Counted from the first letter of the stretch, positions 3,761 through 64,000 are shown. The stretch: 64,000 bases of DNA from Candidatus Phycocordibacter aenigmaticus (GCA_045401115.1 CP174359.1:419247-483246); one strand, 5' to 3'. The notes: generated from the sequence alone by a model not told the origin. Numbers and translations are program-made.

Positions 3761-4021
3761 ATGAACGATCTCTCAATCTTTATAGATAACTTTGTACGTT
3801 TTATTATCAATCCACTGATCGGACTTCTTATGGCTTTGGCGGTTGTGTATTTCTTATGGGGAGCAGCACAGTTGGTACTCAACGGAGGAAGCGAAGAGGG
3901 GAGAAAGAAAGGTAAAGATGCTTTATTGTGGGGATTAATTGGTCTCTTTATTATGGTTGCTGTTTTCGGTATTCTACGTGTCGTCGTAGGTACATTTGTG
4001 CCTGAAGCAGTGACTTTCTAG
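3761..4021 (+). CDS. T4SS-pilin-like small membrane protein (paralog)
   Basis: Motif YFLWGAAQLVLNGGSEEGRKKGKDALLWGLIGLF; fourth tandem paralog. Confidence 0.5.
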   Translation: MNDLSIFIDNFVRFIINPLIGLLMALAVVYFLWGAAQLVLNGGSEEGRKKGKDALLWGLIGLFIMVAVFGILRVVVGTFVPEAVTF

Positions 4022-4114: not shown

Positions 4115-4198
4115 GGGCGAGTGGCGGAATTGGTAGACGCGCGTGGCTTAGGACCACGTATCTTCGGATGTGGAGGTTCGAGTCCTCTCTCGCCCACA
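4115..4198 (+). tRNA. tRNA-Leu (anticodon TAG), type II
   Basis: Acceptor GGGCGAG/CTCGCCC, D-arm GGAATTGGTAGAC, anticodon loop CTTAGGA, long variable arm, T-arm GGAGGTTCGAGTCCTCT. Confidence 0.8.
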
Positions 4199-4252
4199 AA
4201 ATTTAAAATCCTCAAAGTGTAAGCTTTGGGGATTTTTAAATTGCATAGAGGC

Positions 4253-4380
4253 GAAGAGGACTCGAAAGACGGAGGCGGTATACAAGACGAACGAAGTGAG
4301 TGCTTGTCGCCGAGGCCGGGCAGGAGGTCCTTATGCGCGTAAGCGAATTAGGAACCTGACGCCGAGCCTCTCTCGCCCAC
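4253..4380 (+). repeat. tRNA-3'-associated structured element, family A (copy A1, at tRNA-Leu-TAG); terminator follows at 4381..4422
   Basis: Begins AGAGGACTCGAA (inverted copy of the tRNA T-arm); conserved core AGACGGAGGCGG..CCGGGCAGGAGGTCCTTATG..CGAATTAGGAACCTGACGCCGAG; ends CCTCTCTCGCCCAC (direct copy of tRNA 3' end); the 25-nt tRNA trailer and terminator are also duplicated. Confidence 0.55.
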
Positions 4381-4495
4381 AAAATTTAAAACCTCAGAGT
4401 GTGAGCTCTGGGGATTTTTATATTTCGTAGAGGGGGAGAGGAATGGCTACAAATAAATAAACCGCACACGAGGAGTGCGCGGTTTATTTATTTTG

Positions 4496-4578
4496 TGCCG
4501 GGAGTGGGACTCGAACCCACACGGCCGAACGGCCCGGGGATTTTAAGTCCCCTATGTCTACCATTCCATCACCCCGGC
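4496..4578 (-). tRNA. tRNA-Leu (anticodon TAA), type II
   Basis: Revcomp gives acceptor GCCGGGG, anticodon loop CTTAAAA, long variable arm, T-arm GTGGGTTCGAGTCCCAC. Confidence 0.8.
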
Positions 4579-4753
4579 AAGGGATTAAGATACAACATGC
4601 TAGTATCTAGTGTATTGTATCTTGGCCTGCCACTGGAGCAAGCTTTGCTTACCTCGGTAAAGAACTAAATAAAACAGACTGTAATGTTCTATTTTTATTA
4701 TATCCAAGATAAGCAATTCTTATCTTGGCAGCGTCAACACTTGTGTGTCAGCT

Positions 4754-4827
4754 GGAGGCCACGGCGGGAATCGAACCCGCGCATCGAGGTTTTGCAGACC
4801 CCTGTGTTTCCACTTCACCACGTGGCC
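4754..4827 (-). tRNA. tRNA-Cys (anticodon GCA), CCA encoded
   Basis: Revcomp: acceptor GGCCACG, anticodon loop CTGCAAA, T-arm GCGGGTTCGATTCCCGC, 3' CGTGGCC-T-CCA. Confidence 0.8.
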
Positions 4828-5227
4828 AATATCAACAAGAATACTACGATATAGAGCATAAACAAAGAGGGCTATAAAAAATGGAATTAATTTGCTAGAG
4901 TATGCAGTATCGCCTATGAGAGATATCTTATGGGTGATCACTACCGCCTGGAAGAAAAATCTTGCAGGCGGGGCGTGGTAACATAATGCGCTCATCCTTT
5001 TGCTTCACAGCAACAAGAAAGTAAGTAAAACTTTCTTTCGGCGAAGGTTCGAGTATAAAAAATATTTTATACTCCTCACTCTTCTTGAAAGTAAACAAGC
5101 TTCCTTTCTTGTCTTGTTCGCAAAAGACGCGCATTATCGTGAAGCACTACCGCCTGTAAGAGAAATCTTTCAGACGTTCATTTCGGAGATAATGTGAAAG
5201 CAAGCTTTCTCGTTATCCTCCTCAATT

Positions 5228-5299
5228 CCGCCTGTAGCTCAATGGTAGAGCAGCGGCCTTTTAAGCCGTTGGTTGAAGGTTCGAGTCCTTCCGGGCGGA
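5228..5299 (+). tRNA. tRNA-Lys (anticodon TTT)
   Basis: Acceptor CCGCCTG/CGGGCGG, D-arm GCTCAATGGTAGAGC, anticodon loop CTTTTAA, T-arm GAAGGTTCGAGTCCTTC. Confidence 0.8.
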
Positions 5300-5336
5300 C
5301 ACGTTTTAAAAACAGCATCCCATGCTGTTTTTTTCG

Positions 5337-5473
5337 TGCCGCCCGGAAGGACTCGAACCAGAAAGGGGGTCGGGGGAACTGGGTGTTCCCCCGTGGAGGA
5401 GGTTACACGGAACCGTGGGTTCCGTGAGCGCAGGTGAGAATACACCGAGCAGTGAGATTCCTAGTGGGCGGAC
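5337..5473 (+). repeat. tRNA-3'-associated structured element, family B (copy B1, at tRNA-Lys)
   Basis: Begins GCCGCCCGGAAGGACTCGAACC (inverted copy of tRNA-Lys 3' end); core AGGGGGTCGGGGG-hairpin-CCCCCGTGGAGGAGG, CGGAACCGTGGGTTCCG hairpin, TGAGCGCAG, GAGCAGTGAGATTCC; ends in degenerate direct copy ..GGGCGGAC; hairpin terminator follows. Confidence 0.55.
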
Positions 5474-5710
5474 TTGATAGGAAAAAGCAAACTGCTTTGC
5501 TTTTTCCGATACAAGTCCGAGGCGGAGGCATGTTTCATTTTTGCTGCAGTTCATGGCAAAAATGAAAAGCCGAGCCGTGGTCAAGCGCACTTAGTAGATT
5601 TCAAGCGAAGCGAAGAAATATACTTAGTGACGGGTGACGATATGATAAAAATGATTTATATACGCCTGTAAATTTGAAACCATAAAATAAAACACTTCGT
5701 TTAAAGTGTT

Positions 5711-10423: not shown

Positions 10424-13126
10424 ATGCCGCCATTTAATAATTTCACCACCAAAGCAAAAGAAGCAGTTCGTAAAGCGCACGAGCTGGCAATTGAGCGTGG
10501 ACAGAACCAGGTGAGTGCTCTTCATATGGCTATTGCGCTCGTCCTGCAAGAAGATTCAGTTATTCTTTCTATTCTAGAGCGTCTTGATGTTGATACGGTA
10601 CTTTTTACCGATTCAATGCTCGACTTACTCGAAGAGCCGGCGACTAACGCAACAATTTCTCCAAGTTATCAACTTTATTTAACACCTGATCTTGCCCAAG
10701 CGCTTGAAGCAAGTGTAAAGATTGCAGATGGTTTAAATGAATCATTTGTTTCAGTTGAACATATTTTTCTTGGTATTCTCCAATACCCTGGTCCGGCCGC
10801 TGAACTTTTTAATCGTTTTCAAATAAACCGCAACACAGTGACTGCTGTTTTACAGGAGTTTCGTTCAAGTGGTGGCGAAGGCCCTGAAGCGCCGAAAAAA
10901 TATCGCGCACTTTCAAAATATACTCAAAACCTCACAAAACTTGCCAGTGAAAATAAACTTGATCCGGTCATTGGTCGTGATCAGGAAATTGGTCGTATCG
11001 TGCAGATACTTTCACGGCGTACTAAGAATAATCCGATTCTTATCGGTGAAGCAGGAGTAGGAAAAACCGCTATCGCTGAAGGATTGGCAGCGCGTATGGC
11101 GGTGGGTGATGTACCAGAGTCATTAAAAGACAAAGAATTACTTTCACTCGACCTCGGCCTTCTTATTGCCGGCACAAAATATCGTGGTGAGTTTGAAGAA
11201 CGCCTTAAGAGTATTATGAAGGAGGTTGAACGTGCTGAAGGGAACGTCATTTTATTTGTAGACGAACTCCACACCCTTGTTGGTGCTGGTGCGGCTGAAG
11301 GCTCTATTGATGCATCGAACATGTTGAAACCTGCGCTTGCGCGTGGTGAATTGCGAGTGATAGGGGCCACAACGCTGAAAGAGTATCAACAACATATTGA
11401 ACGTGATCCGGCGTTGACGAGACGCTTCCAACCAGTGCACGTCAATGAGCCTTCAATTGAAGACGCGATTGCCATTCTACGTGGTTTGCGTGAAAAATAT
11501 GAAGTATTCCATGGCGTGCGAATTACCGATGATGCTATTGTCGCAGCAGTAGAATTATCAAGTCGGTACATTTCTGATCGATTTCTCCCTGATAAATCAG
11601 TGGATTTAATTGACGAAGCTGCTTCAGCACTGCGTATTGCACTTGAAAATAAACCACCGGCGCTTGAAGAAACTGATCGCAAAATTCGTCGTTTGGAAAT
11701 TGAACTTGAGGCACTTCGAAAAGATGAAAAAGAAAAGGTGGGTAAAAAAGTTAAAGACCGCATCAGTCAAATTGAAAGAGAGGTAAGTGAGCTTCGCGAA
11801 AAAACCGCAGATCTTGAGGTGAAGTGGAAAAATGAAAAAGAAGTGCTTACTGACATTGGTGCGTTAAAGAAAGATATTGATCAACTTCGCTCTGACGCCG
11901 AATCTGCAGAGGCACACGCCGATCTTGCACGTGCTGCGGAAATTCGCTACGGCAAACTTCCTGAGTCAGAAAAGAAACTTAAGACAGCGCAAGCAAAGCT
12001 GAAACGGTTCCAGCGTTCACGACGTGTTCTTAAAGAGGAGGTGACTGAGGTTGATATTGCTGAAGTAGTAGCACGATGGACTGGAGTCCCGGTATCACGC
12101 ATGCTTGAAGAAGAAGCCAAAAAGCTTGCACGCATGGAAGACGCTCTTAAAGAGTCAGTTGTGGGACAAGAGGATGCGGTGCGCCTTGTTTCAGATGCAG
12201 TGAAGCGCTCAAGAGTGGGTATTGCAGACCCAAGTCGTCCTATTGGTTCATTCCTGTTCCTTGGACCAACTGGTGTGGGTAAAACAGAACTTTCTAAAGC
12301 ATTAGCGCAATTCATGTTTGATGATGAGAATGCGATTATCCGTGTGGATATGAGTGAGTTCATGGAGAAGCATGCCATTTCTAAAATGATTGGTTCTCCT
12401 CCTGGATATGTTGGTCATGAAGAAGGGGGGTCATTGACTGAGAAAGTACGCCATCGTCCGTACTCAGTGATACTTTTTGATGAAATTGAAAAGGCACATC
12501 CTGAGGTATTTAATATTCTCTTACAGGTGCTTGATAATGGTCATCTCACTGATGCGAAAGGGCGCAAGGTAAACTTCAAAAATTCAATTATCATTCTCAC
12601 CTCAAATATTGGCGCAGAATTTATCGATAAAATGTCTAGCTTCGGCTTCGCTGCGTCTGCTGAGGAAAATGAACAGGCTGAGTACTCAATTGTGAAAGAC
12701 AAAGTAATGGAGCGTTTGAAGGATTATTTCAGACCGGAATTCCTCAACCGTCTTGACGAGATTATTCTGTTTAATATTCTCTCTCAAGAAGCAATCCGCA
12801 ATATTGTTGAGATGCAGGTTGCTATTGTCGAGAAGCGTCTTAAAGAGAAAGATATTACTCTCCTTATTAAACCGGCAGTGTACGATTATTTAGCTAAGGA
12901 AGGTTACAATCCGCAGTACGGTGCTCGGCCACTGAAACGGCTTATCCAATCAAAAATCATGACCCCTGTAGCATCATTCATGGTAAGTCGCGGCGTGCTT
13001 GAGGGTGGCACAGTACAAGTTGATATGAAAGATGGCGAATTCGTTTTTGATGTGGTTAAGAGCGCTCGCGCCAAAAAATTGAAGCGCACCAAAGCACCCA
13101 CATCAGTAGGTTCAAAAACTTCATAA
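10424..13126 (+). CDS. clpB: ATP-dependent chaperone ClpB (AAA+ Hsp100 disaggregase)
   Basis: Clp-N repeats, two AAA modules (GEAGVGKT; GPTGVGKT), long coiled-coil M-domain between NBD1 and NBD2, no ClpP-binding loop. Confidence 0.75.
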
Positions 13127-13168
13127 AAAGTGTTAGATTAGTGTAACCTCACCTTTATGGAGAGGTAT

Positions 13169-13251
13169 GCGTCGGTGGCAGAGCGGTCAAATGCATCAGA
13201 CTGTAAATCTGACGACTTTAGTCTACGCTGGTTCGAATCCAGCCCGGCGCA
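13169..13251 (+). tRNA. tRNA-Tyr (anticodon GTA), type II
   Basis: Acceptor GCGTCGG/CCGGCGC, anticodon loop CTGTAAA, long variable arm, T-arm GCTGGTTCGAATCCAGC. Confidence 0.8.
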
Positions 13252-13296
13252 CAAATTAAAAACTCGAGCTTTTGCTCGGGTTTTTAATTTGTTGCA

Positions 13297-13435
13297 TGCC
13301 GTGAGCAGGATTCGAACCCGTAGGGGGTCGGGGGCGGCGGAACGCCCCCGTGGAGGAGTTAGGCCGTAGGCCGACATAGAACCGCGGGTTCTATGAGCGC
13401 AGCGAAGCGAGCAGTGAGATTCCAGCCCGGCGCAC
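13297..13435 (+). repeat. tRNA-3'-associated structured element, family B (copy B2, at tRNA-Tyr)
   Basis: Imperfect inverted copy GAGCAGGATTCGAACC; core GTAGGGGGTCGGGGG..CCCCCGTGGAGGAG, TAGAACCGCGGGTTCTA hairpin, TGAGCGCAG, GAGCAGTGAGATTCC; ends in direct copy AGCCCGGCGCAC; terminator 13446..13475. Confidence 0.55.
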
Positions 13436-13483
13436 TGTGAATGTTAAAGCCCAACCAATTTGGTTGGGCTTTTTTACATTCAC

Positions 13484-13615
13484 GCGCCGGGCTGGATTCG
13501 AAAGAAGAGGGGGTCGGGGAGAGGATAGTCTCCCCGTGGAGGAGGCTACACGGAACCGTGGGTTCCGTGAGCGCAGGCGAGAATACGCCGAGTAGTGAGA
13601 TCCCAGCCCGGTACA
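13484..13615 (+). repeat. tRNA-3'-associated structured element, family B (copy B3, tandem to B2)
   Basis: Begins GCGCCGGGCTGGATTCGAA = exact reverse complement of tRNA-Tyr 3' end; same core as B1/B2; ends in diverged direct copy TCCCAGCCCGGTACA; terminator 13621..13652. Confidence 0.55.
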
Positions 13616-13712
13616 TCTCCATAAACGGCTCACCCCACTGAGCCGTTTATTTCGTTGGGGAAAGCTTCACAGAGAGGCTTTGGAAGGCATTTTACGCGTG
13701 TATAATGGCCTT

Positions 13713-14720
13713 ATGAAGAGTTTTTTCATAGTGGGAGCCGTAATAGTTTTGTTCGTCCTCCCGTTGAGCGCACTCGCTTCGAATCATTTTACTAGCGACG
13801 GGTTTTCTTTGGTACCAGAAGTTGTCCGCAATATAACCAACCCTCAGGCGGTACAAGCATGTGACCTCGTAACGTTGATAGATAACATAGTAAGTTTTGC
13901 TACATATATTGCAGTATTTATTGCGACTATTATGTTTGCCTATGCTGGGTTCCTCTATGTTACAGCGGCATCGCGCCCAGAAAACCTCAATCAAGCAAAA
14001 GGTATTTTTGGTAAAGTATTTCTCGGGCTCATTCTTGTGCTTGGGGCATGGCTCATTATTAACTTAGTGATGTCTGTGCTGTTCAATGATGATATTGGCG
14101 GTAATTGGACGTCTTTAGGAGATTGCGGTGAACGACTAGAATTTAATCCTGAGGACTATGCGCCAGTTAATCCTGGTGTAAACACATATGTGCCGGACGA
14201 TCCTTATGATCTTGACCAGCGACGTGAAGCTGATTTAAGGGATTGGTTTGCGAGTTGTTATGTAGGAGTGAAAGATGTGAGCTCTACAAGGGTGAGTGGT
14301 ACGAGTGACGCAGCTGCAGTGTATGCCTGCGACCTTAAAAGAGATTGTGAAGCCACTCTTGGAGACAACACTCCACGTGATAGGACTCAGCCAGTTGATA
14401 TACATGATGACGACTCGGGAGTGTGCGGTATTGTAATCACCGGCGGCTCTGAAGGTGGTCATGCTGGTGGCACTCGCCCCGGTTCACATGGTGCTGGCGA
14501 TAAGCTCGATTTTCGAGTAACAGCAACTTTACAAAGTTACATCCAAGCACAGGAAGACGCAGGTCGCTTTACTCCTGTAGAGCCGCCGAGTTTTGGTGAT
14601 AGACAGTGGGTGGATACTGAAACAAACGCTGTGTGGACCCTAGAAGATGAGGGTGGGTCTAATCAGCATTATGATGTGTGTATAGAAAATTGCCGTACTC
14701 CATCTGCACAAGGCTCTTGA
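13713..14720 (+). CDS. T4SS-pilin-like N-terminal module fused to ~230-aa Cys/Asp-rich extracellular domain
   Basis: N-terminus (signal peptide, ATYIAVFIATIMFAYAGFLYV..ENLNQAKGIFGKVFLGLILVLGAWLI) matches the pilin-like family at 2477-4021; long C-terminal extension unique. Confidence 0.4.
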   Translation: MKSFFIVGAVIVLFVLPLSALASNHFTSDGFSLVPEVVRNITNPQAVQACDLVTLIDNIVSFATYIAVFIATIMFAYAGFLYVTAASRPENLNQAKGIFGKVFLGLILVLGAWLIINLVMSVLFNDDIGGNWTSLGDCGERLEFNPEDYAPVNPGVNTYVPDDPYDLDQRREADLRDWFASCYVGVKDVSSTRVSGTSDAAAVYACDLKRDCEATLGDNTPRDRTQPVDIHDDDSGVCGIVITGGSEGGHAGGTRPGSHGAGDKLDFRVTATLQSYIQAQEDAGRFTPVEPPSFGDRQWVDTETNAVWTLEDEGGSNQHYDVCIENCRTPSAQGS

Positions 14721-14914: not shown

Positions 14915-15029
14915 GCTTTTTGTATATTTGTATTTTTTAAAAAACCGCCATACATATGGCGGTTTTTTAAAATAGGGAAGCCTCCCGCCTGTATGCAAAA
15001 ACAGTGCGCAGGCACTGTTTTTTGTCAGG

Positions 15030-16811: not shown

Positions 16812-16844
16812 AAAAAAACGGCTCACTGTAGTGAGCCGTTTTTT
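16812..16844. terminator. bidirectional rho-independent terminator, AAACGGCTCA..TGAGCCGTTT family
   Basis: AAAAAAACGGCTCACTGTAGTGAGCCGTTTTTT; perfect palindrome with flanking A/T runs. Confidence 0.7.
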
Positions 16845-16886
16845 GTATGGCTGAGGTGGGGCCGTCCCGGAATAGCGGACTTTTTG

Positions 16887-17035
16887 CTGCACAGAGTTGG
16901 AGTCGGCGTCAGCTCACATCGCTATAATTGTTCGCTCCACTCCAATTCTAGCGTGTGGCTCCTGCCCGGACTCGCCGACAAGCACTCGCTCTCGCTCGTC
17001 TTGTGTACCGGCTCCGTCTTTCGACTCCCATCTGG
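16887..17035 (-). repeat. tRNA-3'-associated structured element, family A (copy A4, at tRNA-Leu-CAA, minus strand)
   Basis: Read on minus strand downstream of tRNA-Leu(CAA): inverted copy CCAGATGGGAGTCGAA, core AGACGGAGCCGGTACACAAGACGAGCGAG..GAGTGCTTGTCGGCGAGTCCGGGCAGGAG..GCTGACGCCGAC, ends in diverged direct copy TCCAACTCTGTGCAGC; ~85% identical to A1 core with compensatory changes in the hairpin. Confidence 0.55.
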
Positions 17036-17088
17036 TTGCGACAAATAAAAATCACCGCACACTTTCGTGTACGGTTCATTTATTTTGT

Positions 17089-29558: not shown

Positions 29559-29629
29559 TCCGGGATCGTCTAATGGCAGGACGCTTGGTTTTGGTCCAAG
29601 AAATTGGGGTTCGAGTCCCTGTCCCGGAA
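29559..29629 (+). tRNA. tRNA-Gln (anticodon TTG)
   Basis: Acceptor TCCGGGA/TCCCGGA, D-arm GTCTAATGGCAGGAC, anticodon stem CTTGG/CCAAG loop TTTTGGT, T-loop TTCGAGT. Confidence 0.7.
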
Positions 29630-29681
29630 CTAGGTTACGTTACACACCCGATACGAGAGTATCGGGTGTTTACGTACACCT

Positions 29682-29844
29682 TTCCGGGACAGGGACTCGA
29701 AAGACGGAAGCGCAGGGCTCCCGTTGTGCTGAGTTATATGCACAATGGGAACGCTGAGTCCGGGCAGGAGGTCGTTATGAGTTTTCATGCCGGCAGGCAG
29801 GCAAAACGAATTACGAACCTGACGCCGAGTCCCTGTCCCGGAAC
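29682..29844 (+). repeat. tRNA-3'-associated structured element, family A (copy A2, at tRNA-Gln); hairpin terminator 29845..29880
   Basis: Begins TTCCGGGACAGGGACTCGAA = exact reverse complement of tRNA-Gln 3' end; core AGACGGAAGCG..hairpin..GAGTCCGGGCAGGAGGTCGTTATG..CGAATTACGAACCTGACGCCGAG; ends GAGTCCCTGTCCCGGAAC (direct copy from mid T-loop). Confidence 0.55.
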
Positions 29845-29912
29845 TAGAAAGAAAAGCCGCTTTCAGCGGCTTTTCTTAGTTCCGGAGACAAGAACGGTGC
29901 CTGCGCACCGTT

Positions 29913-30051
29913 CGGGGGACTCGAACCGCCGGAGGCATGTCGCGCGCAGCGGAGCGAGCACGAAGCCGAGGCGTGGCCCGCGGTCGTTATGAATATTTTC
30001 TGAAAGAAAATATGAATTACGAACCATCAGGCTCTAGCCCTGTCCCGGAAC
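29913..30051 (+). repeat. tRNA-3'-associated structured element, family A (copy A3, tandem to A2, more diverged); two terminators 30054..30082 and 30088..30120
   Basis: Begins GGGGGACTCGAACC, contains GCCGGAGGC.., GGTCGTTATG, ..GAATTACGAACC.., ends CCCTGTCCCGGAAC direct copy. Confidence 0.5.
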
Positions 30052-30243
30052 AAAATAAACGGCTCACCCAGGTGAGCCGTTCTTTGCTAAACGGCTCAGT
30101 GCACTGAGCTGTTTATTTTTTAAATAAAAATCAAAAATGTGATGCTTTAAAGAAAGAGATTTTTGAGGTGGCTGGGTTACCTCTAAAAACAGTGCCAGTT
30201 GGGTCGAATTTTGCGTTAGCGATCAATGAAATTGTGGGGTAAC

Positions 30244-34254: not shown

Positions 34255-34455
34255 TTTTTTATAGTTAACAAACCTCAGTTACGAGGTGTGCAGGTTGAAA
34301 AATCAAACGTAGTCAGATAGAAAGTTTGAGGCTAGTGAGCCCCACACGAGTATCAAAAGCGTGTGTGTATAATAGTATATTTACGATTTTTGTCAATCTA
34401 CTATTTTTGATCCTCGGAAGAGGGTGTACACAATGCATATTTTAAAAAGTGACAT

Positions 34456-34485
34456 ATAAACGGCTCATTCCATTGAGCCGTTTAT
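34456..34485. terminator. terminator hairpin of AAACGGCTCA..TGAGCCGTTT family
   Basis: ATAAACGGCTCATTCCATTGAGCCGTTTAT. Confidence 0.6.
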
Positions 34486-34572
34486 ATTTATAGAGAAGTA
34501 TAGGGACCTATCCACTTTACAAGGAATATATTTTAAATCAGAAGTTGGTTGCTATAGTACACTATAAAAGAT

Positions 34573-45935: not shown

Positions 45936-45974
45936 TTTACATCACGCCTCATTTAATACGTGGGAATAGATACG

Positions 45975-46006
45975 CAAAAACGGCTCATCAAGGTGAGCCG
46001 TTTTTG
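45975..46006. terminator. terminator hairpin of AAACGGCTCA..TGAGCCGTTT family (lies inside the ORF-track N-terminal extension of cysS)
   Basis: CAAAAACGGCTCATCAAGGTGAGCCGTTTTTG. Confidence 0.6.
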
Positions 46007-46043
46007 CGTATACCCACCACTATGCATTTGCTATACTTGCTAT

Positions 46044-54648: not shown

Positions 54649-54689
54649 AAAAAATAAACGGCTCAGTGCACTGAGCCGTTTATTTTTTT
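54649..54689. terminator. terminator hairpin of AAACGGCTCA..TGAGCCGTTT family
   Basis: AAAAAATAAACGGCTCAGTGCACTGAGCCGTTTATTTTTTT. Confidence 0.7.
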
Positions 54690-56109: not shown

Positions 56110-57993
56110 ATGCAATACTACATGTCTACACATATATTACAGAGAGGATTATTACTTCTCGGAGCTACATCTCTTTTTGTGTTTTTTGTTGGTGTTCTGT
56201 TTTTTATACCAAATGACTCAGCGCTTGCTGCGACATGTATGCCGGGAAACAGTCAGTCAGTACGTATGACTGGAACTAATCCGAACAGAGAAGCCGATTC
56301 TGTTTGGGCGAGTGCACGCATTAATAGTTCGTATGCTCCTGGAGAGGATATATATGCGGTGGGGGCGATGTGGTCGGATGATTACCCAACCATATGTCCT
56401 CAGCTAGCAATTAATGGAGTCTCTTTTGACCTCGGCTGTCGATTACAGATGGTGTTGACCGAAACTAAGAAAGTAGATACGGCGCCAATGGAACCAGGAA
56501 CGTATGAAATGTGGTGGTCAGTGAGCGGCACACACCCATACCGTGTTGATCGTATTTGTCCTTTGACGTATACCGTTGTTGCGCCCACTCCAACCGCTTC
56601 ACTTTCCGCATCACCATCAACAGTAACCAATGGTGACAGCAGTATACTTTCGTGGTCTTCATCTAACGCCACGAGTTGTACCGGTTCAGGGTTTGATACT
56701 AACAGTGCCACTTCAGGGAGTGTAACGTTGTCACCAAATACAAACACTACGTACACGGTAGAGTGTACAAATACGAGCGGGTCAGCGAGTGATTCAACAA
56801 ACATTTCTGTTATACAACCTCCACAAGCACCAACCGCCTCACTTTCTGCATCACCTTCATCTATTACCCAAGGCGATAGTAGTACGCTTACGTGGACATC
56901 AACCGCTGCAAGTTTCTGTACTGGTTCTGGGTTTAGCACAGGGAATCGTGCCAATGGTTCGGTGACTGTATCACCAAGCAACACCACTGATTATTCAATT
57001 ACTTGTAGTGGTACTGGAGGGTCTGCGCAAGATTCTGCTCGCGTGACGGTTGCGGGAGATGTTCCTACACCAACCGCCTCACTTTCTGCATCACCTTCAT
57101 CTATTACCCAAGGCGATAGTAGTACGCTTACGTGGACATCAACCGCTGCAAGTTTCTGTACTGGTTCTGGGTTTAGCACAGGGAATCGTGCCAATGGTTC
57201 GGTGACTGTATCACCAAGCAACACCACTGATTATTCAATTACTTGTAGTGGTACTGGAGGGTCTGCACAAGATTCTGCTCGCGTGACGGTTGCTTCCGTA
57301 CCAGGTGTGGTGTCGGCATCACTTTCAGCATCTCCAGCTGTTATTTCTAACGGAGAGACAGCATTGCTTTCATGGAGTTCAGTGAACGCTACGCGTTGTT
57401 CTGGCGATGGGAAAGACGGCTTCTATACCGGTGGACGTACTGTAGGGTCACGACTTGTAACTCCAGAAGATTCGACTGTGTATGCGCTTACTTGTGTTGG
57501 TCCGAGTGGTGCCGCGTATGCCTCTGCGTCTGTCATCGTAATACATACGGGTGGACCAGGCGACCCGGGTGATCCAGGCGACCCAGGCGATCCGGGTGAT
57601 CCAAGGGATCCTGAGGATGACCCATCAGAGTGTTCTGACGGAATTGATAATGATGGCGACGGGGCAGTAGATTATCCCGATGATCCTGCATGTTCTTCAG
57701 AAGATGATGACAATGAACGGGCACTAGACGTTTCCCTTGAACTCAACGCGACACCAAATCCAACACGTTCAGGAAAAACTACTACCTTACAATGGAGTAC
57801 GCAAAACGCTATTTCCTGTGCACTTGGTGTAGCAGGAGGGGCTCCTGTTGCTTTACCAAGTGTTTCTGGTTCTCGTGAATCAGCACCATTAACAACTGAG
57901 ACATCATTCAGATTAACTTGTAGAAACTTGGATCAAGTTCCGTTTTCTACTGAAACCAAGGTGAGAATACTCCCTTCATTTATTGAAGAGTAG
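56110..57993 (+). CDS. secreted repeat protein: N-terminal ~110-aa Cys-containing module, tandem ~80-aa Ig-like repeats, (GDP)n collagen-like run, TSP3-like Ca-binding motif
   Basis: Signal peptide; repeats PTASLSASPSSITQGDSSTLTWTST..CTGSGFSTGNRANGSV.. (two units identical at DNA level); PGDPGDPGDPGDPGDP; CSDGIDNDGDGAVDYPDDPAC. Confidence 0.55.
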   Translation: MQYYMSTHILQRGLLLLGATSLFVFFVGVLFFIPNDSALAATCMPGNSQSVRMTGTNPNREADSVWASARINSSYAPGEDIYAVGAMWSDDYPTICPQLAINGVSFDLGCRLQMVLTETKKVDTAPMEPGTYEMWWSVSGTHPYRVDRICPLTYTVVAPTPTASLSASPSTVTNGDSSILSWSSSNATSCTGSGFDTNSATSGSVTLSPNTNTTYTVECTNTSGSASDSTNISVIQPPQAPTASLSASPSSITQGDSSTLTWTSTAASFCTGSGFSTGNRANGSVTVSPSNTTDYSITCSGTGGSAQDSARVTVAGDVPTPTASLSASPSSITQGDSSTLTWTSTAASFCTGSGFSTGNRANGSVTVSPSNTTDYSITCSGTGGSAQDSARVTVASVPGVVSASLSASPAVISNGETALLSWSSVNATRCSGDGKDGFYTGGRTVGSRLVTPEDSTVYALTCVGPSGAAYASASVIVIHTGGPGDPGDPGDPGDPGDPRDPEDDPSECSDGIDNDGDGAVDYPDDPACSSEDDDNERALDVSLELNATPNPTRSGKTTTLQWSTQNAISCALGVAGGAPVALPSVSGSRESAPLTTETSFRLTCRNLDQVPFSTETKVRILPSFIEE

Positions 57994-58023
57994 AAACTTA
58001 TTAATTATTATTTATTACACGTT

Positions 58024-58992
58024 ATGAACACTTCTACCCAAACCACTTACGTTAGAAATATACTTATTGGAATAGGCCTCCTTGCGATTCTTGCGATTGT
58101 GGCTTTTTACTTCTCAGATAACGAACCAGCCGAACAGCCACAAGATCGTGTACCATTATTAGCTGTACTTTCTGAAGTATCTGATCAGTCATGGTTCTCT
58201 CTTAAAGAGGTTCATGTCCGCAGTGTTGAATCAGCACTTCCTGAGTTTGATGGCAAAGTGGTTGATTATGCTCGAAATGGAGGAAGTGAAGTACTCATAT
58301 ACGATGATAGTGGTATTCATGCGGTACAAATGCGATATGATAATTCTGGAGATTGGCACGTCATTTCACGTTCCCCATATGAGAAGCGAGAGGTAGCAGT
58401 GGCACAAAGTGGAGACTATATCGCATATGCTGAACGAGACCGTGATGTCACAGATAGTCTGCAATTAGATGCGTGGACAATATATCTTTTTGACCGCACC
58501 AGTAAAGAACTTTATACCATTGGTGCCGGATATCAGCCGCAATTCCTTACCTTTGGTTCCGGCGATAATATTTGGGAAGCACTCGTTTTCAGTAGTCAAA
58601 ATGGAGTGGGTATGTTTAATTTGAATTTAGTTGCTGCTGATGAGGCGGAACCTCAAATTTATGAGGGTGTTATTCCAGAGTCAACTCATCACCCAGTGCT
58701 ATTTTCTAAGCGAATAAACGATGGGGAAGCGTACGCACTTGCATACGATTCAGTTGCAGGAGCATACAATGTGTTCTCTGTATCAAAGAACTATCTCGGG
58801 TTAAGTGCGCGTGAACAGGTACAAGCTGATGAATTATTAGGCATCACTAATAATTTATTGTATTTTTCTCGCAACGGTGAACTTTACGTACATCGTATTG
58901 GCGGTACTGAAGAACCAAAGTACGTGATGGACATTGAAAACGAACAAGGACAGCGCATTATTGCCGTACTCGATGAGGTTGAGGCAGAGTAA
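58024..58992 (+). CDS. membrane-anchored hypothetical protein
   Basis: N-terminal TM; paralogous to next gene (DYARNGGSEVLIYDDSGIHAVQMRYDNSGDWHVISRSPYEK vs IDYARQGEVEALIQSKDGFHQVLYREKEGDWRVVSESPFEK). Confidence 0.45.
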   Translation: MNTSTQTTYVRNILIGIGLLAILAIVAFYFSDNEPAEQPQDRVPLLAVLSEVSDQSWFSLKEVHVRSVESALPEFDGKVVDYARNGGSEVLIYDDSGIHAVQMRYDNSGDWHVISRSPYEKREVAVAQSGDYIAYAERDRDVTDSLQLDAWTIYLFDRTSKELYTIGAGYQPQFLTFGSGDNIWEALVFSSQNGVGMFNLNLVAADEAEPQIYEGVIPESTHHPVLFSKRINDGEAYALAYDSVAGAYNVFSVSKNYLGLSAREQVQADELLGITNNLLYFSRNGELYVHRIGGTEEPKYVMDIENEQGQRIIAVLDEVEAE

Positions 58993-59000
58993 TTATTCCT

Positions 59001-59936
59001 ATGGTGACATCCACTCAAAGTATAGTAAGATTTTTTTTACCTATCTTAGGGGTGGTGGTTTTGTTTATTGTAGTTGGTTGGTTTTCTATTACAGAACAAG
59101 ATCGGAGCCAAGATACACCCTCCACTTCTTTTCCGGCACTCGATGGACTCTCTTTTCTTGTAGAATCTGATGAGGGCGATTGGTATAGCGTACAACAAAA
59201 AACTTCAGATGGATTCGTGACACAAACACCGGAATTTACTGGAACAATAATTGACTATGCGCGTCAAGGAGAAGTCGAAGCACTTATCCAATCTAAGGAT
59301 GGTTTTCATCAAGTACTTTATAGGGAAAAAGAAGGCGATTGGCGCGTCGTGTCTGAGAGTCCTTTCGAAAAAGCAACACTGAAACTCTCTGAAGATGGCA
59401 CATTACTAGGTTTTTCTGAACGCACAGAAACAGAGATGGATTCAGCTGACTTTGAAGCATGGCAAATTGTTGTTTACTCTCTTGAAACTTCTGAAAGTAC
59501 ATTAATTTCAGGATACGCGCCGCAGTTTGTAACGGTCACTGAGGGATGGACACTAATATATTTCAGTTCTTCTTTAGGTTTGGCAATGTATGAACCAATA
59601 TCAGGAGACATTATCTATTCAGAAGACATTACACCGGTATCCACTCGGCTACCGGTAAAAATTTCTTCTGATGGCACAACGTTGATTTCATACAATGAGA
59701 CTACTCAAGATTTTGTAATCTTTGATTTACAAAATCCAACCACTATTGGTCTTAATGCGCTTGGTACTCTTCCGCCGTATAATGATATATATAAAAAAGA
59801 CGGACTACTATTCGGTCTTGATATACGTGAAAAGGAAAGTTTTATGTGGGTGCATGCGTTGGATCGTTTAGACGAAGGAGAGCAAATATATACTTTTCCT
59901 GAAAACATTATTCCGCTTAAATTTTCATCATCATAA
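59001..59936 (+). CDS. membrane-anchored hypothetical protein (paralog of 58024)
   Basis: Same architecture and conserved blocks as preceding gene. Confidence 0.45.
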   Translation: MVTSTQSIVRFFLPILGVVVLFIVVGWFSITEQDRSQDTPSTSFPALDGLSFLVESDEGDWYSVQQKTSDGFVTQTPEFTGTIIDYARQGEVEALIQSKDGFHQVLYREKEGDWRVVSESPFEKATLKLSEDGTLLGFSERTETEMDSADFEAWQIVVYSLETSESTLISGYAPQFVTVTEGWTLIYFSSSLGLAMYEPISGDIIYSEDITPVSTRLPVKISSDGTTLISYNETTQDFVIFDLQNPTTIGLNALGTLPPYNDIYKKDGLLFGLDIREKESFMWVHALDRLDEGEQIYTFPENIIPLKFSSS

Positions 59937-59944
59937 ATTAATTT

Positions 59945-62900
59945 ATGCACGCTATTTTTAAAGCAACACGTCACCGTATTTTTCTCGCCACCATTGTGGG
60001 TATGTTGGTTCTTTTTCCTATAGGTGTTGACGCGTTCCTTGACTTTAATGGAGGTGGTTTTTTTAATCCTGATCCAGGCGATCAAGGATTCCCTAATCCA
60101 GGCGGAGGCGGACCTCTTAGTATTAGTTGTGGAGCTACTCCTCGAACAATTTCTTCAGGAGGATCAGTTAATTGGTTCTCTTCTGTGTCAGGAGGAACTG
60201 GTTCTTATACGTATTCATGGAGTGGGACTAATGGGTTGTCTGGTAACGCGTCAAATGTGTTTAAAACATATAGTACTGTAGGTACTAAAACAGCACAGGT
60301 TACTGTATATAGTGGCGGACAAACGGCAAGCGATACATGTGGGACGGTACAAGTAAGCGCTCCAACACCAAGTCCGACAGTATCATTATCAGCGAACCCA
60401 ACATCAATTGCAGCAGGAAATACCTCAACACTTTCATGGTCGTCATCTAACGCCACGAGTTGTACCGGTTCAGGATTCAGCACCGGAGGCGCTACGAGTG
60501 GTTCACGTTCGGTGTCGCCAAGTTCGAACACCACATACGGTATTGTTTGTAGTGGCGCAGGAGGAACAGTATATAAAGCAGCATCGGTTTCAGTAACTCA
60601 AGCGGTAGCAACCAATCTTTCCATCTACCCAACATCAATTGTACGCGGAAATTCTGCAACCATCTCATGGTCGTCATCTAACGCCACGAGTTGTACCGGT
60701 TCAGGATTCAGCACCGGAGGCGCTACGAGTGGTTCACGTTCGGTGTCGCCAAGTTCTTCAACAACATATAGTGTGACCTGTCAAAATTCAGTTTCATCAT
60801 CTTCGAAGAGTAGGACATTGACCGTCACCACTCCAACTCCAGCCCCAACCGCCTCACTCTCAGCATCACCGTCATCACTTACGCAAGGCCAGTACACAAC
60901 ACTTTCATGGTCGTCATCTAATGCCAGTAGTTGTGCTGGTTCCGGGTTTAGCACCTCAAACCGTACCAGCGGTTCAGTGACCATATCACCAAACAGCACC
61001 ACAAATTATTCGGTGACGTGTTACGGCACAGGCGGAACCGCATCTGATAGTTCACGAGTGACCGTTACCACGCCACTTCCATCATCATGTAGCAGTGGTT
61101 CTCGTCAAACAGTGAGTATGGCGTTATATAACACAAATAATGAGGCATCAGGTATCTGGGGCAGTGCAAGTATTAATAGTTCATATGCTCCGGGTGAGAC
61201 GATACGCGCAACTGGCTCATTATGGTCAGACGATTATCCACGTGCGTGTCCTTCACTATCTATTAACGGCACCTCATTTAATCTTGGTTGTCAGTTGCAA
61301 CTAGCACCAAGCAAAGTGCTCACAGTTGGTACAGCACCATCAACTCCAGGAACGTATCAAATGTGGTGGGCAGTGGGCAGCACAGGAAGCTATCGACTTG
61401 ATCGTATTTGTCCTATGACATATACCGTTGTTGCACCCGCCCCAACCACCTCACTCTCCGCATCACCTTCTTCTATTACACGTGGTGACAACAGTACACT
61501 TTCATGGTCATCGACTAATGCCACAAGCTGTTCTGGGAATGGTTTTAACACTTCAAACCGTACCAGCGGCTCGGTATCCGTATCACCAAACAGCACCACA
61601 AATTATTCGGTGACGTGTACTGGTGGTGGGGGAAGTCGTTCAGATTCTAGCACTGTTACTGTCACCACTCCAACTCCAGCCCCAACCGCCTCACTCTCAG
61701 CATCACCGTCATCACTTACGCAAGGCCAGTACACAACACTTTCATGGTCGTCATCTAATGCCAGTAGTTGTGCTGGTTCCGGGTTTAGCACCTCAAACCG
61801 TACCAGCGGTTCAGTGACCATATCACCAAACAGCACCACAAATTATTCGGTGACGTGTTACGGCACAGGCGGAACCGCATCTGATAGTTCACGAGTGACC
61901 GTTACCACGCCACTTCCATCATCATGTAGCAGTGGTTCTCGTCAAACAGTGAGTATGGCGTTATATAACACAAATAATGAGGCATCAGGTATCTGGGGCA
62001 GTGCAAGTATTAATAGTTCATATGCTCCGGGTGAGACGATACGCGCAACTGGCTCATTATGGTCAGACGATTATCCACGTGCGTGTCCTTCACTATCTAT
62101 TAACGGCACCTCATTTAATCTTGGTTGTCAGTTGCAACTAGCACCAAGCAAAGTGCTCACAGTTGGTACAGCACCATCAACTCCAGGAACGTATCAAATG
62201 TGGTGGGCAGTGGGCAGCACAGGAAGCTATCGACTTGATCGTATTTGTCCTATGACATATACCGTTGTTGCACCCGCCCCAACCACCTCACTCTCCGCAT
62301 CACCTTCTTCTATTACACGTGGTGACAACAGTACACTTTCATGGTCATCGACTAATGCCACAAGCTGTTCTGGGAATGGTTTTAACACTTCAAACCGTAC
62401 CAGCGGCTCGGTATCCGTATCACCAAACAGCACCACAAATTATTCGGTGACGTGTACTGGTGGTGGGGGTTCAGATTCTGATACGGCTCGTGTCACTGTT
62501 AATGATCCGCCTCCAGAACCAACGGCAAATATTTCTGTGAACCCGTCTACAATTATCCGTGGAAACAGCAGTACGCTTTCATGGTCATCGACTGCCGCAA
62601 GTTTTTGTACTGGCTCAGGATTCAGCACTTCAAACCGTACGAGTGGCTCGGTATCCGTATCACCAAACAGCACCACAAATTATTCGGTGACGTGTAGTGG
62701 AACTGGTGGCAGTGATTCTGACACTGCGCGCGTGACTGTAAACGACCCCGCCCCAACCACCTCACTCTCCGCATCACCTTCTTCTATTACACGTGGTGAC
62801 AACAGTACACTTTCATGGTCATCGACTAATGCCACAAGCTGTTCTGGGAATGGTTTTAACACTTCAAACCGTACCAGCGGCTCGGTATCCGTATCACCAA

Positions 62901-64000
62901 ACAGCACCACAAATTATTCGGTGACGTGTACTGGTGGTGGGGGTTCAGATTCTGATACGGCTCGTGTCACTGTTAATGATCCGCCTCCAGAACCAACGGC
63001 AAATATTTCTGTGAACCCGTCTACAATTATCCGTGGAAACAGCAGTACTATTTCATGGAGTTCCGAAGATGCTACCGGATGTACTGGTTCAGGTTTTTCA
63101 ACAAGTGGTGCCACGAGCGGTTCACGTACCATTTCACCGCCTTCAAGTCGAAATTATAGTGTTACATGTTCTGGACCTGGTGGTAGTGATTCAGACACTG
63201 CGGGAATAACGGTGAACGATCCAGCTCCAACCGCCTCACTCTCAGTGTCACCGTCGTCTATTACGCGCGGTGAAACTGTCACGTTAAGTTGGTCTTCAAA
63301 TAATGCTACTCGTTGTTCTGGCGATGGCCAAGATGGTTTTTTCACTGGAGGTAATGCTTCAGGTAATATCACCATTATTCCGACTGGAAGTAAGACATAT
63401 ACTGTAAGTTGTACTGGTCCTGGCGGTAGCGCTTCTGATGGTGTATATGTGTCAGTAAGTAATCCCGCTCCAACCGCCTCACTCTCAGCATCACCATCTT
63501 CACTTACTCAAGGTGGTAATACTCGATTGAGTTGGAATTCAACCAATGCAACCCGTTGTTCTGGTGATGGGCAAGACGGTTTTTACACTAATGCGCGTAC
63601 GTCAGGTAGTGTGACTATCACTCCAAGTAGTAGTAAAACATACACTGTTACCTGTGAAGGATATGGCGGTGAAGATACTGACTCAGCTTCTGTAAGCATT
63701 TCAACACAATGCTCAGATGGCATCGACAACGATGGCGATGGGCTTATCGACCATCCAAATGACCCAGGCTGTTTTGCGGCATCAGACAATGACGAATATA
63801 ATCCACCACCAGAAGCGTCAATTTCGCTCTCAGTGTCACCTAATCCTGCACGTACCAATGAAACCGCACGACTCTCATGGACCGCACGTAATGTGGAAAA
63901 CGGATCCTGTCGTCTGACCGGTAGTAACGGAGATTCATGGAATTTGAGTGGCACACAAGGCTCTCGTACTTCATCAACACTTACCGAGGAGGTTACGTAT
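59945..64000 (+). CDS. giant secreted tandem-repeat surface protein (3' partial, runs off window; >1350 aa)
   Basis: ATG 59945 with signal peptide MHAIFKATRHRIFLATIVGMLVLFPIGVDA; no stop in this frame to window end (all ORF-track hits here are antisense or off-frame); >15 Ig-like ~80-aa repeats, two copies of the ~110-aa module shared with 56110, and a second CSDGIDNDGDGLIDHPNDPGC motif. Confidence 0.55.
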   Translation, partial: MHAIFKATRHRIFLATIVGMLVLFPIGVDAFLDFNGGGFFNPDPGDQGFPNPGGGGPLSISCGATPRTISSGGSVNWFSSVSGGTGSYTYSWSGTNGLSGNASNVFKTYSTVGTKTAQVTVYSGGQTASDTCGTVQVSAPTPSPTVSLSANPTSIAAGNTSTLSWSSSNATSCTGSGFSTGGATSGSRSVSPSSNTTYGIVCSGAGGTVYKAASVSVTQAVATNLSIYPTSIVRGNSATISWSSSNATSCTGSGFSTGGATSGSRSVSPSSSTTYSVTCQNSVSSSSKSRTLTVTTPTPAPTASLSASPSSLTQGQYTTLSWSSSNASSCAGSGFSTSNRTSGSVTISPNSTTNYSVTCYGTGGTASDSSRVTVTTPLPSSCSSGSRQTVSMALYNTNNEASGIWGSASINSSYAPGETIRATGSLWSDDYPRACPSLSINGTSFNLGCQLQLAPSKVLTVGTAPSTPGTYQMWWAVGSTGSYRLDRICPMTYTVVAPAPTTSLSASPSSITRGDNSTLSWSSTNATSCSGNGFNTSNRTSGSVSVSPNSTTNYSVTCTGGGGSRSDSSTVTVTTPTPAPTASLSASPSSLTQGQYTTLSWSSSNASSCAGSGFSTSNRTSGSVTISPNSTTNYSVTCYGTGGTASDSSRVTVTTPLPSSCSSGSRQTVSMALYNTNNEASGIWGSASINSSYAPGETIRATGSLWSDDYPRACPSLSINGTSFNLGCQLQLAPSKVLTVGTAPSTPGTYQMWWAVGSTGSYRLDRICPMTYTVVAPAPTTSLSASPSSITRGDNSTLSWSSTNATSCSGNGFNTSNRTSGSVSVSPNSTTNYSVTCTGGGGSDSDTARVTVNDPPPEPTANISVNPSTIIRGNSSTLSWSSTAASFCTGSGFSTSNRTSGSVSVSPNSTTNYSVTCSGTGGSDSDTARVTVNDPAPTTSLSASPSSITRGDNSTLSWSSTNATSCSGNGFNTSNRTSGSVSVSPNSTTNYSVTCTGGGGSDSDTARVTVNDPPPEPTANISVNPSTIIRGNSSTISWSSEDATGCTGSGFSTSGATSGSRTISPPSSRNYSVTCSGPGGSDSDTAGITVNDPAPTASLSVSPSSITRGETVTLSWSSNNATRCSGDGQDGFFTGGNASGNITIIPTGSKTYTVSCTGPGGSASDGVYVSVSNPAPTASLSASPSSLTQGGNTRLSWNSTNATRCSGDGQDGFYTNARTSGSVTITPSSSKTYTVTCEGYGGEDTDSASVSISTQCSDGIDNDGDGLIDHPNDPGCFAASDNDEYNPPPEASISLSVSPNPARTNETARLSWTARNVENGSCRLTGSNGDSWNLSGTQGSRTSSTLTEEVTY

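Follow-up and report, generated by a model that had tools for sequence, protein, structure and literature searches.

We analysed a 64,000-nt stretch of the genome of Candidatus Phycocordibacter aenigmaticus (GCA_045401115.1, CP174359.1:419247-483246), called here the window, in which the tRNA-Tyr gene is followed by two related elements, B2 and B3; together with a third copy, B1, they represent what we call family B. A preliminary description of the locus had placed hairpin 1, B2, hairpin 2, B3 and hairpin 3, in this order, behind the tRNA gene, and its coordinates and motifs are borne out by the sequence. In the layout predicted for each element, the two arms form a closing helix (P1), and then come the hairpins P2, P3 and P4. 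The covariance model R1, cited below, was built from seven copies with B1-B3 among them, so that the scores of these three (138-144 bits, E-values of about 1e-37 to 1e-39) are matches by construction. The features are as follows:

13169..13252, + strand: tRNA-Tyr (GTA), the anchor of the array (ARAGORN; Rfam tRNA model, 61.7 bits)
13253..13292, + strand: hairpin 1, a palindrome in which an A-tract and a T-tract enclose the stem CTCGAGC/GCTCGGG; by its sequence it resembles a terminator in either direction
13296..13435, + strand: element B2 (R1, 144.2 bits)
13296..13317, + strand: 5′ arm of B2 (ATGCCGTGAGCAGGATTCGAAC), like an inverted tRNA 3′ end, foreign to tRNA-Tyr
13318..13420, + strand: core of B2 (predicted fold, R1 model, pair counts)
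First half of the B2 core: J1/2 CCGTAGGGGGTC; P2 at 13330-13349; GTGGAGGAG at 13350-13358; an extra hairpin at 13363-13373
Second half of the B2 core: P3 at 13376-13394; GAGCGCA at 13395-13401; P4 at 13402-13408; GAGCAGTGAGAT at 13409-13420
13421..13435, + strand: 3′ arm of B2 (TCCAGCCCGGCGCAC), a 15/15 direct copy of the tRNA-Tyr 3′ end
13436..13483, + strand: hairpin 2, centre of a palindrome made of the B2 3′ arm, spacer, stem, spacer and B3 5′ arm
13484..13615, + strand: element B3 (R1, 141.4 bits)
13484..13502, + strand: 5′ arm of B3, an exact 19-nt reverse complement of the tRNA-Tyr 3′ end including the T loop
13503..13601, + strand: core of B3 (predicted fold, z = -5.0)
First half of the B3 core: J1/2 at 13503-13515; P2 at 13516-13535; GTGGAGGAG at 13536-13544
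Second half of the B3 core: P3 at 13550-13568; GAGCGCA at 13569-13575; P4 at 13576-13589; GAGTAGTGAGAT at 13590-13601
13602..13615, + strand: 3′ arm of B3 (CCCAGCCCGGTACA), a diverged direct copy of the tRNA-Tyr 3′ end
13621..13652, + strand: hairpin 3, member of a repeated palindrome, AAACGGCTCA-N6-TGAGCCGTTT; not flagged by the terminator scan
5335..5473, + strand: B1, the third family B copy, behind tRNA-Lys(TTT) and its hairpin (R1, 138.2 bits)

The source of the arms is the last ~20 nt of tRNA-Tyr, which comprise the T loop, the 3′ strand of the T stem, the 3′ strand of the acceptor and the discriminator. It had been claimed that each element opens with an inverted copy of this 3′ end. 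The claim holds for B3, whose 5′ arm shows no mismatch (and 0 matches in 100 shuffles), and fails for B2, whose 5′ arm agrees with tRNA-Tyr at 18 of 21 positions with gaps and is of other origin, the same arm being found in L028 and L056 (L numbers designate loci related or compared to those of the window). The direct copy of the acceptor 3′ strand that was said to close each element is present in both, though diverged in B3. In B1, the 5′ arm matches tRNA-Lys(TTT) at 25 of 26 positions, and the 3′ arm is nearest to a tRNA-Lys(CTT)-type 3′ end. The conserved core is likewise real: B1, B2 and B3 have in common GGGGGTCGGGG...CCCCGTGGAGGAG, a GAACC-GYG-GGTTC hairpin, TGAGCGCAG and CGAGYAGTGAGAT.

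The assignment of a terminator to each element is borne out in part. Hairpin 2, with 12 pairs and a T run (13446-13472), is the sole one of the three hairpins to pass on the + strand in a simple terminator scan; hairpin 1 scores on the - strand only, and hairpin 3 on neither. Most flanking hairpins are symmetric (A-tract, stem, T-tract), and tRNA tail, hairpin and next 5′ arm make up a single near-perfect palindrome of ~80 nt; long palindromes of this kind draw spurious microRNA-like matches in a permissive Rfam search. In L033 and L039 the terminator stems differ while the A/T flanks stay, and hairpin modules seem to be exchanged. The palindrome of hairpin 3 occurs at no fewer than seven sites of the window (13619-13652, which is hairpin 3 itself, 16812-16845, 30053-30086, 30085-30118, 34454-34487, 45974-46007 and 54652-54685), and again in the sister genome L055 (11377-11405); it looks like a family of repetitive extragenic palindromic (REP)-like sequences or of mobile terminators.

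Family B behind tRNA genes of Patescibacteria

Family B comprises 15 copies in total, the three of the window and 12 others in genomes and metagenomes of Patescibacteria. Pattern scans found L018, a Patescibacteria genome bin, and 13 metagenome contigs, which amount to 10 distinct loci, and synteny with ClpB contributed L056 and L057; in a strict pattern scan of species-representative genomes, one of the 19 matches was genuine. R1 recovers the 15 full copies at 36-160 bits, with no further copy in ~265 kb of related DNA. Such a scan with a covariance model had been set beforehand as a check on the family, and its outcome is favourable, since covariation holds and since the copies, as a whole, lie behind at least eight kinds of tRNA. 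Fourteen of the 15 directly follow a tRNA gene and share its orientation, the exception being L049, whose contig ends ~230 nt upstream. Outside the window, the preceding tRNAs are Cys, Met (four times), Ile (twice), Arg, a His-like one (that of L039, recognised by its 3′ end and not called by ARAGORN), Asn and Tyr. Within it, one or more cassettes, of family B or of a second family, A, lie behind five of the eight tRNAs. Some copies (L023, L024 and L020) are truncated or rearranged. No member of family B was found in viral contigs, which gave chance matches only, nor in phage genomes or plasmids, both searched with blastn. A recurrent viral match, GGGAGTGAGCGCAGACGCACGAGCAGTGAGATTC (L025, L036, L047 and L053), given only 11-12 bits by R1 for L025 and L053, was set aside as a probable chance match within coding sequence, without a tRNA scan of these loci.

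Almost without exception, the 3′ arm reproduces the local tRNA perfectly, beginning with the base that follows the T loop and running past the discriminator (15/15, 21/21, 23/23, 18/19, 16/17 and 19/21 when compared with the local 3′ end); only in L026 and B1 does it look like the tail of a different tRNA. As for the 5′ arm, it is a near-perfect mirror in B1 (25/26) and B3 (19/19), it is shrunk to the T-loop/T-stem part in L033, L039 and L040, and in B2, L028 and L056 it is foreign to the local tRNA yet common to these related cores; the 5′ arm is partly inherited together with the core. When self and non-self arms are compared with RNAduplex, B1, B3 and L023 stand out with -20 to -23 kcal/mol.

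A structured scaffold directly followed by a variable but perfect target copy, which starts exactly past the T loop, is also what one would expect of a guide RNA. The cassette could then serve a protein encoded elsewhere, in the manner of TnpB/Cas12 guides or of bridge RNAs, with the core as scaffold, the 3′ arm as a guide of 15-20 nt and the T loop as adjacent motif, and would guide this protein to tRNA 3′ ends for cutting or insertion. The cassettes are indeed multi-copy and target-specific, their arm identity changes with the tRNA while the core is kept, and the omega RNAs of TnpB and IscB and the bridge RNAs of IS110 likewise set a structured scaffold beside a target-matching segment. However, the cassettes have no adjacent nuclease or recombinase gene, and their target-matching segment is present in both orientations. 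No cognate gene was found among the genes around the copies: there is no TnpB, IscB, Cas or IS110-type gene beside any of them, nor among the 30 open reading frames (ORFs), out of ~40 large ones, that were scanned in the window. The Rfam models HEARO and IS605-orfB are not matched. Moreover, a nuclease guided in this way would attack the intact resident tRNA gene too, and the inverted 5′ arm would stay unexplained. We regard this explanation as improbable.

Predicted fold, strand and comparison with known classes

The strands that join the predicted helices are purine-rich and conserved (GGGAAGGGGGUC, GUGGNGGAG, UGAGCGCA and GAGCAGUGAGAU), and the lengths of hairpins and loops vary between copies. 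In a model-based alignment, 95.3% of the cells of P2-P4 pair and both sides have changed at 18 of the 22 pairs; none of 500 shuffles equalled the observed value, and slid pairings gave 34-66%. The compensatory stem changes that had been claimed for the elements of the window are thus seen as three covarying hairpins across 15 copies, that is, as helices kept by compensatory changes in independent copies, which is the generic mark of a structured non-coding RNA. In L056, found through synteny alone, a G-C pair at the base of P4, outside the search pattern, is swapped for A-U. The nearly invariant UUCGAAC, which lies innermost in the 5′ arm, and the similarly near-invariant GUGAGAU are consistent with a model in which they pair (U-A, C-G, tandem G.A/A.G, A-U, C-G) and so lengthen P1. 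No target complementary to the conserved joining strands was found within the window.

Covariation would equally preserve a folded DNA strand. One may therefore imagine single-stranded DNA hairpin elements, of the REPIN (REP doublet) or IS200/IS605-derivative type, moved by an HUH (Y1) transposase encoded elsewhere and recognised as folded DNA during replication; the cassettes are built of hairpins within long palindromes, and other small palindromes are repeated, and apparently exchanged, in these genomes. More generally, the cassettes resemble miniature inverted-repeat transposable elements (MITEs) and REP/REPIN sequences in being short, non-coding, multi-copy, hairpin-rich and intergenic, with enzymes encoded elsewhere. 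But the terminal repeats of MITEs are constant and flank a short target duplication, whereas the arms of the cassettes vary from copy to copy with the adjacent tRNA, the duplicated target measures 15-23 nt, and an internal folded core is conserved. The same dependence of the ends on the local tRNA argues against a Y1 transposase, for such enzymes depend on invariant subterminal hairpins and a short fixed target. The scanned window ORFs contain no gene for Y1 or for a REP-associated tyrosine transposase (RAYT), and orientation tracks the tRNA, not replication (B on the + strand at ~5.3 and 13.3 kb, A on + at ~4.2 and 29.7 kb and on - at ~17 kb). An origin of this kind thus seems very improbable.

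As to the transcribed strand, the sequences are only suggestive and favour, without settling it, that of the tRNA. P2 contains three G-U pairs against a single A-C, the latter in a rearranged copy, and both hairpin 2 and the hairpin of L028 are terminator-like on the + strand alone. Between the upstream hairpin and the 5′ arm there is a gap of only ~5 nt, which leaves no room for a separate promoter; transcription would probably come by read-through from the tRNA promoter. A likeness may be drawn here with 3′ETS-leuZ of E. coli, an RNA situated directly behind a tRNA, probably part of one transcript with it and ended by a terminator; but 3′ETS-leuZ is a short unstructured sponge known from one locus, while the cassettes form a repeated, mobile and highly structured family.

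The preliminary description had allowed for the core turning out to be part of a known RNA, and no Rfam family explains it. When the whole window was compared with Rfam 15 (4227 models, including those of ribozymes, riboswitches, HEARO/IS605-orfB, YrlA, transfer-messenger RNA (tmRNA) and RNase P), tRNAs alone reached the gathering threshold, and permissive searches (E <= 10 over 13100-13720, E <= 1 over 4190-5660) gave scattered sub-threshold matches, none of them common to the copies. ARAGORN and Rfam call eight genuine tRNAs in the window and nothing, neither tRNA nor pseudogene, over 13296-13615 or 5335-5473, the tRNA-derived part of the cassettes being the arms only; tmRNA genes were also looked for with ARAGORN, in the window and the related loci, and none was found. 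Resemblance to tRNA-like modules, such as the tmRNA domain, bacterial YrlA, mascRNA and viral tRNA-like structures, lies in the paired ends, which form an acceptor/T-arm-like helix beside T-loop sequence and make maturation by tRNA enzymes plausible; the cassettes differ in that they match no tRNA, tmRNA or YrlA model and in that the helix is copied from the neighbouring gene and is degenerate in about half of the copies. No reverse transcriptase domain, as would be expected for a retron, was found among the scanned window ORFs or the neighbour genes of related loci. Several other identities were tried and rejected. The palindrome ends GTTCGAAT ... ATTCGAAC, which come from the tRNA T loop, misfit the R boxes (RYYYAAC ... 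GTTRRRY) of an integron attC site, and there is no IntI gene among the scanned window ORFs. Hammerhead, hairpin and hepatitis delta virus-like ribozyme cores have no Rfam match, and their consensus does not fit on inspection. Protein coding is contradicted by a frame of 20-30 codons, common to B1 and B3, that a 7-nt deletion breaks in B2, and by hairpin lengths that vary by non-multiples of three. A retroviral-type primer binding site would mirror the CCA end, and the 5′ arm mirrors the genomic trailer instead. In the literature searched, which includes a survey of 224 motifs, nothing comparable was found.

Exchange of cassettes at the tRNA-Tyr locus

The clpB - tRNA-Tyr - pilin - L33 neighbourhood is conserved in sister genomes, which made it possible to follow up the suggestion that elements might be missing from some of them. 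Such an empty site does exist, and the other sisters carry other content behind tRNA-Tyr:

L054: the terminator alone, empty of cassettes
L055: a 1.6-kb island ending in an 18-nt direct repeat of the tRNA tail
L056: a single mosaic (hybrid) B copy
L059: an unrelated sequence
L060: a family A element
Genome of the window: two B copies

Comparison of the copies points to the same mobility. B1 and B3, behind tRNA-Lys and tRNA-Tyr of one genome, belong to the same sublineage and are 85% identical, whereas the tandem neighbours B2 and B3, of different sublineages, are only 68% identical and are therefore independent arrivals and not the result of a recent duplication; B2 is closer (88%) to L028, which stands behind tRNA-Ile in another metagenome. 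When the window is compared with L056, identity is 76-79% for the cores, against 66% for the 3′ end of clpB and 51% for the hairpin spacer; the core has therefore been conserved or recently exchanged, and its surroundings have not. Cassettes are, then, gained, lost, swapped and stacked at one tRNA across sister genomes, and one sublineage is found at different tRNAs while different sublineages stand in tandem at one tRNA. In L058, a contig that represents an identical strain from another sample (its ClpB is 100% identical), the sequence ends inside the P2 hairpin of B2 (3849-3894). Cassettes appear to break short-read assemblies.

Sites that vary in this manner at tRNA 3′ ends recall the islands inserted by tyrosine integrases at att sites, with which the cassettes share the location, the direct repeat of the tRNA tail at the far border, the variation among sister genomes and the tandem stacking. 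One explanation could be that the cassettes are scars or miniatures of integrase-mobilised tRNA islands, the tail copy being attR and the core an attR-proximal end that acts as DNA through recombinase or accessory sites. Direct repeats of the tRNA 3′ end do flank the cassettes, occupancy does differ among sister genomes, L055 carries at the same tRNA-Tyr an island bounded by the tail repeat, and L040 has several tandem fragments of the tRNA-Asn 3′ end. However, the cassettes are small (~135-180 nt), have no conserved ORF, and contain neither an integrase nor a remnant of one; none was found in the islands or in the scanned window ORFs either. The L055 island itself (11199-12803) holds a TrmB-family regulator and two tiny ORFs; its right end was tried as a relative of family B, with which it has local similarity (GGTGAGCGC..GCGAATACG), and was rejected for lack of an R1 match. 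In addition, a tail supplied by attP must match at least eight kinds of tRNA, and yet related cores at different tRNAs share no hairpin region; the extra inverted copy of the tail would be without a role; and compensating stem changes that include G-U pairs, as well as variable loop and stem lengths, fit a folded single strand better than duplex sites. What is carried at the tRNA is a covarying RNA fold and not genes. We consider the explanation by integrase scars to be rather unlikely.

An alternative is that the RNA serves the host, in tRNA biology: it might be a mimic or decoy of the top half of a tRNA, or dock on tRNA via the T-loop-like pentamers UUCGA and UGAGA, and might affect processing, protection or turnover, the copies having arisen by duplication and not by selfish spread. 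In well-formed copies a 12-13 bp helix taken from the neighbouring tRNA is followed by UUCGA, copies with a decayed 5′ arm still have a perfect 3′ arm, conservation is higher in the cores than in the adjacent protein-coding DNA, and the density of cassettes, at five of eight tRNAs in the window, is very high for a small streamlined genome. On the other hand, empty sites in sister genomes and the replacement of A and B by each other at one tRNA fit dispensable, exchangeable elements better, half of the copies have only a weak acceptor-like helix, and truncated or rearranged ones (L023, L024 and L020) occur. This possibility, too, is one that we hold to be doubtful.

Possible nature of families B and A

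Each of these rival explanations accounts for part of the pattern and fails on specific points. We favour, tentatively and at somewhat less than even confidence, the view that family B is a non-autonomous, multi-copy insertion cassette of the 3′ flanks of tRNA genes in Patescibacteria (Paceibacteria and Kaiserbacteria-like), encoding a structured RNA of ~135 nt. As to its function and its mechanism of insertion, we infer the following. The travelling unit would be the T-loop complement together with the core. Its point of entry would be either the junction of T loop and T stem or a site immediately downstream of the tRNA, and homology between tRNA ends would guide the event, through recombination or template switching, leaving a duplicate of the local tRNA tail on the right of the cassette. 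Since no enzyme is encoded nearby, mobilisation would be the work of host or trans-acting enzymes. The RNA would be made on the tRNA strand, by the read-through considered above. The 12-13 bp helix followed by UUCGA in well-formed copies may resemble an acceptor/T-arm minihelix, and because of this likeness RNase P, RNase Z and the CCA-adding enzyme could excise the cassette RNA. The conserved junction would be the working part, most likely a binding site for a trans-acting protein or a tRNA.

A number of points weigh against this view. The pair counts come from an alignment fitted to R1, and the apparent invariance of TGAGCGCAG and CGAGYAGTGAGA is partly due to their use as search pattern, although the other conserved strands and all the stems are free of that constraint. 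The evidence on the strand is thin, most flanking hairpins being symmetric, and we infer not only the strand and the ends of the RNA but even that RNA, instead of single-stranded DNA, is the active form. Terminator-like hairpins between tRNA and cassette argue against efficient read-through. Arm pairing in L018, L020, L026, L028 and L039 is no better than that of non-self arms by RNAduplex, and only about half of the copies have a strong outer, acceptor-like portion of P1, because the 5′ arm varies; a full minihelix mimic is therefore not universally maintained. A core-less precursor, made of mirror arm, T loop and tRNA tail, was not found. Finally, we know of no insertion mechanism that gives a perfect direct copy of a 15-23 nt target on one side and an inverted copy on the other.

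The preliminary description had seen in family A a second lineage of the same kind of element, and this is supported: the arm plan is the same (inverted and direct copies of the tRNA tail), the core (GACGGAGGC-hairpin-GCCGAGGCCGGGCAGGAGG-hairpin-CUGACGCCGAG) is unlike that of B, and its helices covary too. The elements of the window are:

4240-4383, + strand: family A
5500-5640, + strand: possibly family A
16888-17042, - strand: family A
29678-29848, + strand: family A
29897-30052, + strand: family A

Their hosts are tRNA-Leu(TAG), tRNA-Leu(CAA) and tRNA-Gln (two in tandem), to which sister genomes add tRNA-Cys, tRNA-Leu(TAA) and tRNA-Tyr. If our reading is right, families B and A represent two new, well-supported RNA structures, both built around a conserved core rich in purines.

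Several smaller observations concern the surroundings of tRNA genes in the window. Past the tRNA-Leu(TAG) family A element, at 4381-4442, a second unit opens with another hairpin and 5′-arm start (82% identity to 4199-4260) but is then cut short. Behind tRNA-Trp (~14975-15027, - strand), the sequence past the terminator mirrors 9 nt of the acceptor 3′ strand (ACAGGCGGG) but lacks a core; it may be what is left of a former cassette, or a cassette in the making. A G+C-rich palindrome (AACGGTGCCTGCGCACCGTT, ~29868-29890), resembling the tRNA-Trp terminator (AACAGTGCCTGCGCACTGTT), splits the 5′ arm of the second tRNA-Gln element. Between tRNA-Cys and tRNA-Lys (~4935-5180) lie a tRNA-Lys T-arm fragment (GAAGGTTCGAGT, ~5042-5053) and, at ~4940 and ~5150, two similar segments, ACTACCGCCTG[GT]AAGA[GA]AAATCTT; they are debris or small repeats around tRNAs. 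Mechanically called ORFs of 94 and 139 amino acids run across B and A cassettes (5306-5590 on the - strand and 29573-29992 on the + strand) and are spurious; gene callers are likely to annotate false proteins over cassettes, as in the case of the 86-amino-acid ORF called in the gap of L059.

Among the 30 scanned ORFs of the window, 25 have a Pfam match, all of them to housekeeping functions (IF-2, MiaA, ParB, RelA/SpoT, TopA, DprA, SerRS, Dus, ribonucleotide reductase, CysRS, TGT and UvrB), and five have none; no integrase, transposase, reverse transcriptase or RNA-guided nuclease was found in this set. ClpB, upstream of the locus, was identified through its homologues, and its best relatives (72-85% identity) are in Paceibacteria, Kaiserbacteria and other Patescibacteria bins. 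Tandem repeats of ~240 nt (periods of 231-243 and 597 nt, 60-100% identity) occupy 56400-63700 within large ORFs, probably those of a repetitive surface protein.

Going one step further, A and B together might form an undescribed class of protein-less mobile RNA genes, which would home to tRNA 3′ ends via the tail complementarity in their own arms, hijack tRNA transcription and processing, and may fill most tRNA loci of some Patescibacteria; this is a possibility that we judge to be unlikely. The question that is posed is how a tRNA tail gets duplicated, once inverted and once direct, around an insert. If our reading is true, it would help to account for the broken assemblies and false ORF calls that occur beside tRNAs in metagenome-assembled genomes of Patescibacteria. 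It would also mean that there is a novel type of mobile element, defined by an RNA fold and target-copied arms instead of by a transposase gene, and that some genomes among the smallest and most streamlined in bacteria tolerate, or make use of, a folded RNA present in dozens of copies at their tRNA genes.

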